From Squalus acanthias (taxonomy: Eukaryota): a DNA stretch of 64,000 bases. This document shows positions 35,739-59,214 of this stretch, piece by piece. The notes beneath the pieces are model-generated. The model did no database searches and was not told the origin of the DNA. It was given only the letters and a program-made list of their open reading frames with translations. Position 1 is the first letter of the stretch; every line of letters begins with the position of its first letter. The stretch is taken from the NCBI GenBank assembly GCA_030390025.1, contig CM059432.1:15254001-15318000 (forward strand). The letters are read 5' to 3'. The position numbers were made by a program, and so were the translations under genes.

Positions 35739-36618
35739 GGGGAAAAATTCAGTTGGTTGCGCCTCCCATTAGCGCCTTAAGAGGGCGCTAATGGGGCACA
35801 AAGCAACTAGCACCCAGGCGCGACGATGTTTGCGCCGCTCACGAAATTAACTAGACACTTTGCGGCGGTGCTAAACACTACCGCCACGATCTCCTGCGCC
35901 GGCAGATCGTGACATCAGTCGAGTGCGCAGCGCCCCGGAGCGGATATTGAGTGGCGCCCCCTGCCTTACCGCCTGCCGCTAGCAACGACAGGTTGAGGGG
36001 AGCGTTTTGCAGTCAGGAAGGGACTGGGGGAGCGCTATTTAAAGGCGACCGCTTCCTGCCTTTTATTGTTGGTGACATTTTTGCACCACGCATTCTGAGA
36101 GAGAGAGAGAGAGACTTCTGGAGAGATTCAACGCTGTGTCAAGGAGTTTTGGGTACTGAGCAGCACTTTGCAGGTTCCTTTTGATTTGCCCTTCCTTGTA
36201 TCGATTTAGAAGAGACTGTGGGGGCTGCACTCTGAGCTCTTTGCCTGGTACTCTCCATTGTTCTTTCCAGCAGATTCGATGTACAGGTCTCTTCAGGCCG
36301 AGATTCAAGGCTACAATGAGCAGGATGTGGATGGAAAGCAAGATCAACCCTCCCCTTTAAGAACTGGCCGGCGCCATTTTGTCTGTGTTCCATTGCTGAC
36401 TGACATCACATGAGCTTCGGCAGCGCTCTGAGGTAGCACCTCGCTCCTCGGACTTTGCGCCTTAAGACAGATGTGTAGCGCCTGATTTCGCGCTCCAATC
36501 ACCTCCAGGGGCGATAAAAGTCAAGTTTGCAGTCGGAGGCGATAATTAGCGCCAGGCGCTAATCTTTGCGCCCGGCCGATAATTGCGCCCCAAATGGGGG
36601 GATACTGAATTTCTCCCC
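35739..36618 (+). mobile_element. Harbinger-like non-autonomous element
   Basis: TIR GGGGAAAAATTCAGT/ACTGAATTTCTCCCC; homologous over its full length to 55112-56003. Confidence 0.85.
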
Positions 36619-37975
36619 TTAGATGTCTTGTGTGAACAGCATGGAGCTTGCCTTGGTTGTACTGCTTCCCATAGTCGCCTAGTCTGCCAACACTCATTGT
36701 TGAAGCTCACGTATGAAGAAGAGGCACTTGCCCAAAGTACCAGAAGGTACCCAACACCCATGGTTTGTACCCCAGCCGGAGTCAGGACAGGAAGCAGGAA
36801 AATTAGAGGACAAAAGAAAAAAAGGGGGAGTCCCACCATCAGGACTCCTTTAAACAATGAGGAACGTTATCACAAATTTAGATTCTGGGTTTTGTTATCA
36901 ACCAGAATCTTTTAATAATACTTAATTAGTATGAAATGACATTAACCTTGCTGTAGTGATTTTATTGCAACGGAGATGTGTCAGTCAAATACAGAAGCAA
37001 AGAAATTAAACTCTTAAAATGTTCTGTATTTTCCAGCATAGTCAATTAATTGATTTGAAACATCAGTGGTGTGTTGAACATGAATGAATGCAGTGATGCA
37101 CGCTGCTCTAAATTAGGAGAAGGTTGTTCATTTATTTCTCTATCAGCAGTGAGCTGTTGGACTAGCACATCTGCTCCATCTCTATATTAAAATTCTGCCG
37201 CCACGCTCTTAAATGCATTGCTACTACCATTAATCTCCACTAGTGTTTTCATTATCAGCCCCAAAAAATTGTTTTTTAAATTTACAATCACTCAGTGCGC
37301 TGCCATGTACTGGCTCCAAATCTGTCTCATAAAAATTAAGCCTATAACTTATTTGGCCGATTCAGAAGGAATCAAATAAGCATGTTAACAGGCATCTTAT
37401 GCTGATCACTAACCACTGGAGGACTGTAGTGGCCTTTCAGCACCAGAGTAATTCAAACGTAGAAATTCTGAGTTAAGTTTCCATCGTGTTCTGAATGAAG
37501 AAGTTCTCTCTTCAGTTCCTTGTTTTTAAAACTTCTATTTTTCCTCGTGCCTCTCTTGAAATGTTGATTCAGGCTAGCGGATTGTGTCAGTGCCTCTCCC
37601 AAGCAGCCATTCTTCCTGTGTAAACCTGAACAGTGAGTGTCAGTGGGTTTTTCCAACTGTTCCATCTCTGTAACCTCCTCCAGCCTTACAACCCTCTGAG
37701 CAAAGTTGAAGCCCATGGAATAAAAAGGACAGTGGCAACATGGATATGAAATTGGCTGAGTGACAGGAAACAGAGCGTAGTAGTGAACGACTGTTTATCA
37801 GACTGGAGGCAGGTACACAGTGGCGTTCCCCACGGGTCGGTTCTAGGAGCACTGCTTTTCTTGATATATATTAATGACCTATAGACTTGGGTGTACAGGG
37901 CACAATTTCAAAATTTGCAGATGACACAAAACTTGGAAGTATAGTGATCAGTGAGGAGGATAATGATAGACTTCA

Positions 37976-52772: not shown

Positions 52773-53172
52773 TTCAGAAGAATGAGAGGTGATCTCATTG
52801 AAACATAACTGAGGGGGATTGACAGGGTAGATGCTGAGAGATTGTTTCCCCTGGCTGGAGAGCCTAGAACTATGGGGGCATAGTCTCAGGATAAGGGGGC
52901 GGCCTTTTAAGACTGAGATGAGGAGGAATTTCTTCACTCAGAGGGTTGTGAATCTTTGGAATTCTCTGCCCCAAAGGGCTATGGAGGCTGAGTCGATGAG
53001 TACATTCAAGGCTGAGATCGATAGATTTTTGGACTCTCGGGAAATCAAGGGATATGGGGATAGTGCAGGAAAGTGGAGTTGAGGTCGAAGATCAGCCACG
53101 ATCTCATGGAATGGTGGAGCAGGCTCGAGGGGCCGTATGGCCTACTCCTGCTCCTAATTCTTATGTTCTTAT
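52773..53172 (+). mobile_element. CR1 3' end
   Basis: GHSLRIRGRPFKTEMRRNFFTQRVVNLWNSLP and tail. Confidence 0.9.
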
Positions 53173-54044: not shown

Positions 54045-54375
54045 TATGTTCTCTTATCTTATGTTTTTAAGTACAGATCCGCCATGATCTAAGTGAATGG
54101 CAGAGCAGGCTCGAGGGCTGAATGGCCACCTCCTGTTTCTATGTTCCTATGACTGTAACAGGACAGAAACAGAAACAGCTGCAAATATACGTTGCAATTT
54201 ATTCATATTATAGATAGATTTTTGGACTTTAGGGGAATCAAGGGATATGGGGATCGGGCGGGAAAATGGAGTTGAGGTCGATGATCAGCCATGATCTTAT
54301 TGAATGGCGGAGCAGGCTCGAAGGGCCATATTGGCCTACTCCTGCTCCTATTTCTTATTTCTTATGATCTTATGT
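54045..54375 (+). mobile_element. Two short CR1 3' tails
   Basis: GCCATGATCT..GAATGG..GAGCAGGCTCGA..CTCCTG..CTAT repeated twice. Confidence 0.8.
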
Positions 54376-55111
54376 GGTAACAGGGCACTTAGAAAATCAT
54401 AATATGATTAGGCAGAGTCAACATGGTTTTATGAAAGGGAAATCATGTTTGACAAATCTGTTAGAGTTTTTTGAAGATGTAACTAGTAGGATGGATAAGG
54501 GGGGGACCAGTGGATGTGGTGTATTTGGATTTTCAAAAAGCATTCGATAAGGTGCCACACCAGAGGTTATTGCACAAAATTAGGACTCATGGGATTGGGG
54601 TTAATATATTAGCATGGATTGAGGATTGGTTAATGGACAGAAACAGAGAGTAGGAAAAGACGGGACTTTTTCAGGTTGGCAGGCTGTAACTAGTAGGGTA
54701 CCACAAGGATCAGTGCTTGGGCCTCAGCTATTTACAATCTATATTAACTACTTTGATGAAGGGACTGAGTGTAACGTATCCAAGTTTCCTGATGATACAA
54801 AGCTAGGTGGGAAAGTAAGCTGTGAGGAGGACGCAAAGAGGCTGCAGAGAGATATAGACAGGTTGACTGAGTGGGCAAGAACATGGCAAATGGAATACAA
54901 TGTGGGGAAGTGTGAAGTTATCCACTTTGGTCGGAAAAGCAAAAAAGAAGAATATTTTTTGAATGGTGAGAGACTGGGAAATGTTTGCATTCAGAGGGAC
55001 CTGGGTGTCCTTGTACATGAATCACAGAAAGTTAACATGCAGGTACAGCAAGCAATTAGGAAAGGAAATGGTATGCAAGCTTTTGTTACAAAGATATTAG
55101 AATATAAGAGT

Positions 55112-56003
55112 AGGTAAAAATTCACTTGGTTGCGCCACCCGTTAGCGCCTTAAGAGGGCGCTAATGGGGCGCAAAGCCGCTAACGCCCGGGCGCAGCGAT
55201 GTTTGCGCCGCTCGAGAACTTAACTTGAGATTGTGCAGCGGCGCTAAAACTTACCGCTGCGACCACCTGCGCGCGCAGATTGTGACGTCATTCCATGGTG
55301 CAACGCCCTTGGGGCGCCCCGTAGCGGAAATTGAGTGGCGCCCCCTGCCTTACCGCCTGGCGCTTCCAACGACCAGAAGACTGGAACGCTATCAATCGCT
55401 GTGGGGCTGGGGGGGGCGCTATTTAAAAGGGGCCTCTTCCTGTCTTTTATTGTTGGTGGCATTTTTGAACTACGCATTCTGAGAGAGAGAGGGAGAGACT
55501 TCTGGAGAGATTCAACGTTGTGTGAAGGAGTTTTGGGTACTGAGCAGCACTTTGCAGGTTCATTTTGATTTGCCATTCCTTGTATCGATTTAGCAGAGAC
55601 CGTGGGAGCTGCACTCTGAGCTCTTTGCCTGGTGCTCTCCATTGTTCTTTCCAGCACATTTGATGTGCAAGTCTCTCCAGGCCGAGATTCAAGGCAGCAA
55701 TGAACAGGATGTGGATGGAAAGCAAGATTAACCATCCCCTTTAAGAACTGGCCCGTGCCATTGTGTGTGTGTTCCATTGCTGACTGACATTACATGAGCT
55801 TCGCCAGCGCTCCGAGTTAGCGCCTCACTGCTCGGCCTTTGCGCCTTAAGAGAGGTGTGCAGCGCCTGCTTTAGCGCTCCACTCACCTCCCGGGGAGGTA
55901 AAAGTGAAGTTTCCCATCAGTGCCGATAATTAGCGCCAGGCGCTAATATTTGCGTCCGGACGATATTTGCGCCCCAAATGGGGCGCGACCTAATTTCTAC
56001 CCC
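55112..56003 (+). mobile_element. Harbinger-like non-autonomous element (family of 35739-36618)
   Basis: GGTAAAAATT...AATTTCTACCCC termini; same internal segment with (GA)n. Confidence 0.87.
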
Positions 56004-56071
56004 AAGAAGTCTTACTACAATTAGACAGGGCATTGGTGAGGCCACACCTGGAGTACTGTGTACAGATCTTG

Positions 56072-56745
56072 GGGGGAAAAATTGGGTCGCGCCCCCTTTG
56101 GGGCTCTAACTTCGCTGGGGTACTACTTTTAGCGTCCCGAAAAAGTTAGCGCCCCCACACCCGAAATTCACCGGTAGCGCCCCAAGAGGGAGGCGGAGCA
56201 CTACTGGAAGCGCTCCGCCTCCCTCTTGGGGCGCTGCGAGTGAATATCGCGGCACTATGTGCCGCGGTACTGCAGGCCTTCCTCCCCTTACTAAAGGGGA
56301 GGGGCCTAGCGCAGCGCAACTCGGGGCCCAGCTGGGCCACCAGGGATCGGAGTGCCGGCAAACGAGCCCAGCACTCAAGAGAAGTGCCGGGCCCATGGAG
56401 TGCAGGTGGCCAGCAACAGAAATAGCCGCCCGGCACCTTCCCTTTAATTGGCGCCTCCCCGGTCGCAGGTAGGCCCCCCTGACCCCGTCGGACATAGCGT
56501 CCGGCGGGAAGTCAGGGGACGCTACCGAAGATCGCAGCCGGGGTGCAAGCGGGGCGCTGCGCATGGCGATGACATCATCGCCGGCAGCGCAGCACCGCAG
56601 GGCACTAACCGCCGCCGCTAACGTCCCACTGAATTTCGCGGGAGTTGTTAGTGGCGCCACGCCCAGGCGCTAGTTGCTTTGCGCCTCCCGTTAGCGCCCT
56701 CTTAGGGCGCTAACGGGAGGCGCAAATCAACTGAATTTTTCCCCC
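56072..56745 (-). mobile_element. Harbinger-like MITE, related ends, different interior
   Basis: Perfect TIR GGGGGAAAAATT/AATTTTTCCCCC; flanks TTG/CTG; 23-bp subterminal palindrome. Confidence 0.88.
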
Positions 56746-57119
56746 CTGGTCTCCTTACCTAAGGAAAGACATACTTGCCATAGAGGGAGTGCAGCGAAGG
56801 CTCACTAGACTGGTTCCTGGGATGAGGGGATTGTCCTATGAGGAGAGATTGAGTAAACTAGGCCTTTATTCCTCAGCGTTTAGAAGAATGAAAGGTGATC
56901 TAATTGAAACACATAAAATTCTTAAGGGGCTTGACAGGGTTAATGCTGGGAAATGTTTCCCCTGGCTGGGGAATCTAGAACACGGGGTCACAGTCTCAGA
57001 ATAAGGGGTCGGCCATTCAGGACTGAGATGAGGAGAAATTTCTTCACTGAGAGGGTGGTGAATCTTTGGAATTCTCTACCCCAGAGAGCTGTGGATGCTC
57101 AGTCGTTCATTATATTCTA

Positions 57120-58152
57120 CATGATGTGGAGATGCCGGCGTTGGACTGGGGTGGACAAAAATGAGAAGTCGCACAACACCAGGTTATAGTCCAACAGATT
57201 TATTTAAAATTACAAGCTTTCGGAGCTGTCGCCCCTTCCTCAGGTAGAGTTACTGTGAGACAATCTACCAGAATTCACAGAATATAAACACAGAGAAAAT
57301 GCATTCAATCTTTCCCTACATCAAAGACACACTAAGAGCACAGCCAAGACAATGAGATGTGTCCCAGGGGGTCCAACGTGTCAAAACACCTGCTGGCTGC
57401 ATATCCTCTCCATTTGGGTTTGTTTCTTGTGTTTGTTTCTTGTGTTTGTTTTTTTTAAAAAGCTGGAAAGACCGGCAACGATGTCAAGTCACGTTCTGTA
57501 TCGTGACATGAACCCGATATCCCGATTGAGGCCGTCCTCATGAGTGTGGAACTTGGCTATCAGTTTCTGCTCGATGATTTTGCGTTGTCGTGTATCCCGA
57601 AGGCCGCCTTGGAGAACGCTAACCCGCAGATCCGAGGCTGAATGCCCTTGACTGCTGAAGTCAAGGGCATTCAGCCTCGGATCTGCGGGTTAGCGTTCTC
57701 CAAGGCGGCCTTCGGGATACACGACAACGCAAAATCATCGAGCAGAAACTGATAGCCAAGTTCCACACTCATGAGGACGGCCTCAATCGGGATATCGGGT
57801 TCATGTCACGATACAGAACGTGACTTGACATCGTTGCCGGTCTTTCCAGCTTTTTAAAAAAAACAAACACAAGAAACAAACACAAGAAACAAACCCAAAT
57901 GGAGAGGATATGCAGCCAGCAGGTGTTTTGACACGTTGGACCCCCTGGGACACATCTCATTGTCTTGGCTGTGCTCTTAGTGTGTCTTTGATGTAGGGAA
58001 AGATTGAATGCATTTTCTCTGTGTTTATATTCTGTGAATTCTGGTAGATTGTCTCACAGTAACTCTACCTGAGGAAGGGGCGACAGCTCCGAAAGCTTGT
58101 AATTTTAAATAAATCTGTTGGACTATAACCTGGTGTTGTGCGACTTCTCATT
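57120..58152. mobile_element. Palindromic Penelope-like insertion (inverted 3' ends)
   Basis: 494-bp arms 57160-57653 and 57659-58152 with a 5-nt loop; each arm encodes a GIY-YIG C-terminus (GHSASDLRVSVLQ..EQKLIAKF.T..GLNRD); TSD TCATTATATTCTA. Confidence 0.9.
58066..58101 (+). ncRNA. Minimal hammerhead-like motif (mirror copy at 57211-57246, minus strand)
   Basis: UAC-CUGAGGA-A-GGGGC(GACA)GCUCC-GAAA-GCUU-GUA. Confidence 0.65.
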
Positions 58153-59214
58153 ATATTCTAGACAGAGGTTGATAAATCTTTGGGAACAAAGGGAATTAAG
58201 GGATATGGGGATAGTGCGGGAAGGTGGAGTTGAGGTAGAAGATCAGCCATGATTTTGTTGAATGGTGGAGCAAGCGCAAAGGGCCAAATGGCCGACTCCT
58301 GCTCCTATTTCTTATGTTATTATGAATCATTTTTTTCCCTCAGGACCTCAGAACTGTGGGACTACTTACATCCCTCAGTCTCCTCTTCCTCGTATAGTCT
58401 ATAGGGTTTTAAAACCTTGGCTTGACGTGATTTAACTGATATTACTGCGTACTTCGTCTTCTTCTCCTGCTCTTTTCAACCTTAATCGTGTCCTGTACGA
58501 TTGGTCTTGGCCCTGCACATAGATTTCTCAAAATAATACAGTAAACCATTTTTCCCCGCAAGTAAACTTTGAACACTCAGGATCTTTCATGCATCCCCAA
58601 TGCTCCCAGCTCAGATACTAACTAAAAATTCCTTTCACGATGGTCTTCCCCGGCCAACTTTGACCTTTCAAAGTTTTCATTTCAACTTTAAGTTCTCTTT
58701 GTTCCCGCAGTGTATTCCACTTAACCTTTTCAGTCAGAGAGACCTTACATAGCTTTGGACAACATGCATTCAGGACATTATTCATTTATGTTTCTGTTCG
58801 CATTGATGTCTTTAAATTAATAATCGTGACATTTCGTGAATAACTGGATACAAGTCAATAACTGAGCAAAGAAACTTTCAGTAATTAACAGGGACAATCA
58901 ATATCCAGAGTTACAATTTCCAGCTGGGTTTAAAGGATAGAAATCAAGTAAGTGAAGTTGTAACAATCAGGACTTAATGTATTGCGACTGTCTGGGTAAA
59001 AGCTGGATGGGAAAGGTCGTAGAAAAAGACGTTTTTAAGCTGCTTTTTCATTGTCCTTTGAAGGAATTTGTCCCCCTCATTCCCGAGCTGTGCCGCACTC
59101 ACCCAGTGACAACCCCAATGAAAACTTAATGGTTTCACAAAGACTCGCGACCATTTTTTATACCCTACCTTCACAGAAGCTGAGCTTAGTGTAACTGGAA
59201 AATTTACATTGGAG

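Follow-up and report, generated by a model that had tools for sequence, protein, structure and literature searches.

Penelope-like elements (PLEs) that bear an endonuclease (EN+) typically carry an adjacent inverted, 5'-truncated copy and a tail of 30-40 bp on one side only (PMC8557442, PMC3846280, PMC8969392). For example, Pen2a_Av has an inverted copy with a TSD of 9-10 bp (PMC3846280). Minimal hammerhead motifs of metazoan PLEs have been described as pairs on opposite strands, 100-700 bp apart (PMC4209133). How the inverted repeats and the one-sided tail are formed is an open question according to two of these sources (PMC8557442, PMC3846280). Self-priming on antisense RNA has been proposed (PMC3846280), and resolution by the endonuclease has been suggested (PMC8557442). 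Purified protein of an anole PLE (PAc) cleaves and extends both strands, with two RT starts that bound the tail (PMC11167929).

Here we describe a palindrome of ~1 kb in Squalus acanthias. It lies in a window of 64,000 nucleotides, by which we mean the whole stretch of DNA that was analysed. Its head-to-head inverted layout is known PLE anatomy, and an earlier note on this DNA had given it as known that PLEs can carry inverted pseudo-LTRs and hammerhead motifs (PMC8557442, PMC3846280, PMC4209133). The palindrome is a single TSD-flanked PLE insertion, the arms of which likely come from two separate first-strand cDNAs, with one primer on each nicked strand of the target. The locus itself is ordinary. 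Its family, however, is a handle on the open mechanism of PLE inverted repeats: it is young and so abundant that there are enough insertions to choose between models. Its ORF is intact, and both the consensus of its target and the stagger are defined.

Results

Structure of the palindrome

Self-comparison of the window gives two arms of 494 nt each (57160-57653 and 57659-58152), which are 100% complementary with 0 mismatches around the loop GCTGA; the first mismatch outward is 57159/58153. This bears out the mismatch-free palindrome of the earlier note, and the other parts of its description hold as well. The GIY-YIG C-terminus that it placed at 57659-57823 is the last 54 codons of an ORF with RT and GIY-YIG, and one minimal hammerhead motif is found in each arm, where hammerhead-like cores had been seen. 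The extra 40 nt on the left side alone (57120-57159) are the element 5' UTR of the next tandem unit, up to and including its ATG; they match exactly L045:5104-5143, directly before the ORF of that copy. The flanking repeat TCATTATATTCTA is a 13-bp TSD (57107-57119 and 58148-58160), of which 5 nt overlap the right arm. At the centre, the two arms have a 3-nt overlap, AGT, and the tailed arm is 8 nt longer than the tail-less arm (Table 1). The central junction reads ACT-GCTGA-AGT, a natural mini-hairpin.

The insertion interrupts a LINE that we take to be CR1. Once one TSD copy is taken out, the remaining sequence can be aligned gap-free with further copies of CR1, e.g., window 52927-53079 at 81%; the host is continuous across the site, as had been claimed. 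One TSD around both arms in continuous CR1 also supports the earlier claim of a single insertion event. The host LINE (window 54368-58320) is split three times, the PLE palindrome being one of the splits. The other two are a GC-rich insert at ~55113-56003, with an 85% similar copy at 35740-36629, and an insert at ~56071-56746 with 13-bp terminal inverted repeats (GGGGGGAAAAATT); both GC-rich inserts resemble elements of the MITE type that contain internal hairpins. Pfam gave no match for the 54-aa arm frame alone and two CR1 frames, and, in the search for a host gene, none for the 100 longest of 265 non-repeat window frames, a search that short exons could escape.

Table 1. Coordinates of the palindrome, its parts and its host in the window
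Feature	Position	Strand	Remark
Left TSD copy TCATTATATTCTA (host CR1 sequence)	57107..57119	+	13 bp
PLE tail, 40 nt, 5' UTR of the next unit ending in ATG; marks RT start site B	57120..57159	-	exact L045 match
Tailed arm, element 3' end from e2507 (counted from the L045 ATG); includes the loop, which is element sequence	57160..57661	-	
Minimal type I hammerhead motif (predicted), left arm	57211..57246	-	
Central junction, loop GCTGA and 3-nt overlap AGT common to both arms	57654..57661	.	
Tail-less arm, which is the element 3' end between e2515 and RT start site A	57659..58152	+	
Last 54 codons and stop of the ORF with RT and GIY-YIG	57659..57823	+	mirror at 57489-57653, minus strand
Minimal type I hammerhead motif (predicted), right arm; predicted cut after 58098	58066..58101	+	
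Right TSD copy; its initial 5 nt (TCATT) are shared with the element at site A	58148..58160	+	
Host CR1-like LINE, 3' part, interrupted by the insertion	56747..58320	+	bounds approximate

Hammerhead motifs and folding

The motif in the right arm reads UAC-CUGAGGA-A-helix II (5 bp)-GAAA-GC-UU-GUA. The hammerhead descriptor built for this analysis has one match per arm and 2 others in the 64 kb. The core is conserved across the family ends with N7 variable, and one pair of helix I covaries among the ends compared (U-A 117, C-G 43, U-G 6, other 2). Rfam, searched up to E=1, returned no hammerhead family, and only sub-threshold microRNA hairpin models, which are due to the palindrome. On RNA folding the region is no more stable than its shuffles (z -0.73 to +0.13); this is expected of a minimal motif and lends no support to a hammerhead. 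It is a predicted minimal type I motif with putative self-cleavage. Any single transcript of the window palindrome holds one sense hammerhead only.

The earlier note had also foreseen double-stranded RNA and a cruciform. From the sequence, it is possible that a read-through transcript would fold into a duplex of ~494 bp and that a DNA strand would form the same hairpin; no transcript specific to the locus was found.

Identity and abundance of the element

In the arm we recognise the 3' end of elements from a young family, which has 2,540 candidates in its own 3.7-Gb genome; 40 of these were scored and are ~98-99% identical. In L045, a 919-codon open frame (892 codons from the ATG) contains RT (RVT_1, E=7e-8) and then a C-terminal GIY-YIG. 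The Pfam scan of this frame did not match GIY-YIG; many homologs of the ORF carry PF01541 and align through the GIY-YIG domain. The ORF has the motifs VVYLIRCSKGC...WYIG, NGH and EH (GIY-YIG with a CCHH motif), ADKGG and GLKF, and its linker finger, CHGNLCKTC (CX4CXXC), is conserved in the homologs. The closest named homologs of the protein are from shark (80-91%), followed by turtles, sea urchin and lancelet (35-45%). L045 and L165 show the pseudo-LTR that results from a partial tandem (pLTR-ORF-pLTR), and the inverted truncated copy and the optional 30-40-bp tail are both present in this family. The element is an endonuclease-bearing PLE. By the linker finger CX2-5CXXC between RT and EN, a trait of the Neptune clade that is also found in Nematis, it would be Neptune-like. 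A MITE or foldback DNA transposon was ruled out, as the ends are asymmetric and no centre is common among 30 loci. Full-length or near full-length copies are L045:5004-8145, L165, L174 and L145. Since the 892-codon ORF of L045 is open from its ATG, the family may still be active. The homodimer prediction for ORF residues 1-260 had a score of 0.17 and a mark of 0.32.

A 31-nt motif from the element end has 67,282 exact matches genome-wide. Among the first 100 matches listed, which cover 5.6 Mb of C1, there are 29 adjacent pairs head to head within 3 kb. One locus (L037:4045-8628) is a 4.6-kb palindrome within a 14-bp TSD, and its arms of ~2.3 kb both have long open RT and EN frames. The window palindrome is neither rare nor special within the family. 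A rough extrapolation from 29 pairs per 100 matches gives a number of the order of 20,000 head-to-head repeats of this family in the genome. Such repeats are a standing source from which double-stranded RNA or cruciforms may arise, and it would be wrong to discount perfect palindromes of this type as assembly errors.

Two sets of loci were compared. The young set consists of the window and 66 loci that are the best matches of two DNA queries; because they were picked by similarity to these queries, they are no random sample and are biased to long, young copies. The position-ordered set (L081-L140) comprises 60 of the 71 regions from the first 100 motif matches listed, with all 29 pairs and 31 of the 42 singles. 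The pair counts derive from the first 100 matches listed of two patterns. Most copies of the position-ordered set are older, at an identity of ~90%, and very short, the arms measuring 20-110 nt. Many begin just upstream of the hammerhead, a clustering that is partly a subfamily alignment boundary. L102 and L103, at a distance of 17 kb from each other on C1, do not differ in insertion or flanks; this is a local duplication and was counted once.

Ends and target sites

One tailed and one tail-less end are found in 71 of the 76 pair rows. The tailed end (site B) is at the ATG of the ORF, and the tail-less end (site A) is ~40 nt upstream; in tail coordinates, t100-112 is the range of the A ends and t138-151 that of the B ends. 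Site A (t100-112) is also the 3' end of single copies. The other five rows are two with unclassified ends, the double counts L083 and L163, in which older ends are nested, and the partial tandem L165, in which the outer end is A. A TSD of 10-15 bp (mode 12-13) surrounds the whole palindrome in 74 of 76 rows, here the 71 above and five older pairs added by hand; L107 and L141 are without TSD. In the young set, 34 of 35 pairs have a TSD of at least 10 bp, compared with 17 of 32 singles (p=2e-5).

At both ends, TSD and element share more microhomology than they do after permutation, with 1.70 vs 0.69 at A ends (0/5000; n=73, one duplicate dropped) and 1.23 vs 0.41 at B ends (0/5000; n=73). It is uncorrelated with TSD length, and the 5 nt of the window are at the upper end of the family distribution. 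The bases preferred at one edge of the TSD mirror those preferred at the other (r=0.81 overall and 0.83 outside the TSD; 0/20000 permutations), and the target motif, C..TG.C|T...T on both strands, is dyad-symmetric. The same target sites inside other repeats have been reused independently (L094/L135/L162/L168; L106/L163; L089/L092; L084/L130), for example a TSD beginning TTCATAAATAGA four times, which is consistent with the target motif of the family.

Origin of the two arms

We consider it probable, though well short of certain, that reverse transcription is primed from each of the target nicks, at the two RNA start sites on either side of the tail, and that the two cDNAs are joined head to head. 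On a dyad-like target, the endonuclease would nick the two strands at positions 12-13 nt from each other. Each 3'-OH would then anneal by 0-6 nt to the sense RNA and start a cDNA, one of them at B and the other at A. The cDNAs would both end early, and 0-4 complementary nucleotides, AGT/ACT in the window, would serve to join their 3' ends head to head; repair would fill in the second strands. The product is a dead 5'-truncated copy. Single copies that end at A or B would go back to events with only one successful priming. The arms run antisense from each nick, with a preferred start and primer-like microhomology, and so have the look of two target-primed first strands. The fuller TSD in pairs than in singles would also follow, because extension of both 3' ends would protect it. 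Since A and B are strictly paired and the arms share a haplotype, both reverse transcriptases may have worked on one RNA molecule, which is the weaker part of the proposal. We draw this picture from genomic patterns and have observed no intermediate, so that our confidence in it goes beyond an even chance without being high.

The earlier note had favoured another course, in which the cDNA snaps back, copies itself near to its start and is joined by microhomology. Here the tailed cDNA would fold on a 3-bp stem, be copied back and be joined at site A, perhaps after trimming by the endonuclease. At the window, the mini-hairpin at the junction, the 8-nt excess of the tailed arm and the identity of the arms fit this course, but the junction fits twin priming equally well. 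Among the young pairs (with the window and one old pair dropped), the tailed arm is longer in 12 of 29, as snap-back would have it, and near-equal arm heads are in excess (3/29 vs 0.6 expected, p=0.015). However, snap-back cannot yield the 17 of 29 pairs in which the tail-less arm is longer, 16 of them by >50 nt; in the position-ordered set, the tail-less arm is longer in 12 rows vs 3, with 6 ties (21 resolved of 33 rows). Because the tail-less arm is longer in 17/29 and 12/21 pairs, there is no containment of one arm in the other. The containment that snap-back implies fails both ways when the tail-less arm is long and the tailed arm short, and each arm then requires a template of its own. 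Nor can snap-back yield L166, where a 1.4-kb A-ended arm is joined to an 18-nt inverted stub of tail only within a 12-bp TSD. The tail-less end is no random stop but a fixed site, A, where single copies normally have their 3' end too, and one near-equal pair, L033, has the longer tail-less arm. As the mechanism of the family, snap-back is thus not borne out, and we regard it as unlikely. It could hold for the window locus and the near-equal-arm subclass; near-equal arms could equally be the result of two enzymes running off one truncated RNA.

Private variants do not settle this point. Near-equal loci, including the window, have 9 on both arms and 14 on one, compared with 19 and 71 elsewhere. 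A snap-back subclass, or later gene conversion, would give this excess, but private variants on both arms also occur in loci with a longer A arm (15 in 11,192 sites) and are therefore no proof of cDNA copying. At 66 of 74 informative sites the two arms have the haplotype of their subfamily in common, minority subfamilies included; the 2711 T>A differences, which lie at a homopolymer boundary, were left out. The private variants would fit one RNA, two RNAs of one source, or gene conversion alike, and the arm haplotypes would fit one RNA as well as two RNAs of one source.

In a third course, self-priming on antisense RNA would form an intermediate with its arms head to head, which would be resolved by the endonuclease at A and B and then integrated (PMC3846280; PMC8557442). 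This course allows either arm to be the longer and agrees with the central junctions, most of which overlap by 0-4 nt, with 1-4 nt common; the antisense RNA would come from palindromic copies. Palindromic master copies, for their part, were ruled out, since no central junction is common to different loci among 30 loci. Against self-priming, the target microhomology at both outer ends and the ~12-nt spread of the ends fit primer annealing better than cutting, and it was sense RNA that was extended from both strands in vitro (PMC11167929). In addition, the 18-nt tail-only stub of L166 would require a fold-back over 1.4 kb. We find this course quite improbable.

Reality and age of the locus

Sequencing reads were compared over 57615-59200, i.e., the loop, the right arm and the right flank (four runs, all contigs). 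A 72-nt contig spans 58130-58201 with 0 differences in two runs of one sample; only ~20 nt of it are on the element side, below the 31-letter rule, and the sample may be the source of the assembly. This contig is about as deep as the unique flank (12 vs 12.1; 3 vs 3.7), a hint that the insertion is present on both chromosomes in that sample. Neither the loop junction nor an empty allele is among the matches listed for this interval, which are the smaller part of all its matches. At 58748 the window has C, and all three DNA runs compared have T at full depth; this is either another individual or an assembly error.

We see very little chance that the palindrome is an artefact of the assembly or of a fold-back read. 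The identical arms and the absence of the loop junction among the read matches listed would suit an artefact. However, the unlike flanks rejoin to a gapless CR1 with a direct 13-bp repeat, the asymmetry of the outer ends follows the rule of the family, and the 72-nt contig reaches across the right end, albeit by ~20 nt. Two independent opposite insertions at one site, which the target preferences of the family and its reuse of sites within other repeats might suggest, are close to refuted by the single TSD that encloses both arms in 74/76 rows, by the lack of tail-tail pairs within 3 kb among the first 100 tail-only motif matches listed (three are at 4-6 kb) and by the haplotypes that the arms share.

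At the pooled arm-to-arm divergence of the family, 0.77% (29 young pairs), 0 mismatches in 494 has P ~0.02. The window locus is therefore young or homogenised, and no outlier. That the insertion is very recent, as had been said, was not confirmed.

Discussion

Priming from both target nicks leads us to a wider view, to which we give about even weight: the inverted pseudo-LTR and the one-sided tail would be one phenomenon. A particle with two active sites would nick a dyad-symmetric target with a 12-13-nt stagger and make two first-strand cDNAs on the same RNA, always one per tail edge. Palindromes would then be the normal complete product, and singles would be half-failed. In the literature searched, which left older PLE papers and most subscription papers outside its scope, we did not find a model with two nicks and two cDNAs, and its novelty is thus not assured.

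In LINE-1 twin priming, the second nick in the target starts another cDNA on the RNA of the element, and microhomology joins the cDNAs. Second-nick priming and joining through microhomology are thus common to LINE-1 and to the model suggested here. LINE-1, however, primes internally, which gives a 5' inversion with little duplication, whereas in the PLE both primers would start at the 3' end, 40 nt apart, and hence give an inverted duplication.

The EN+ PLEs reported to date (PMC8557442, PMC3846280) share with this family the head-to-head truncated copy, the tail at one end, the short TSD, partial tandems (here L045 and L165), the C-terminal GIY-YIG and the hammerhead in the pLTR. The layout is identical. 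What has been counted here is the pairing of one A with one B end, the TSD mode of 12-13 bp, the fact that either arm may be longer and the dyad symmetry of the target, in a family of >67,000 ends. The minimal type I hammerheads of metazoan PLEs (PMC4209133) likewise have the CUGANGA and GAAA core, an extra base before helix II, G-C as the first pair and a palindromic helix III remnant; those of the present family are known from the sequence motif.

The closest biochemical counterpart is PAc, the Poseidon element of Anolis carolinensis (PMC11167929), with the in vitro data of which priming from two nicks fits. Two RT start sites bounding the tail, cleavage and extension of both strands, and a hammerhead adjoining the ORF start are shared. 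A term search of the available text found two-strand extension tied neither to inverted copies nor to TSDs, and PAc showed no difference in start site between the strands, so that the strict pairing of A with B is left unexplained there. The start sites of PAc, a member of the Poseidon clade, lie inside the ORF, whereas the sites of the present family bound the 5' UTR up to the ATG and belong to an element whose protein has a CX4CXXC linker.
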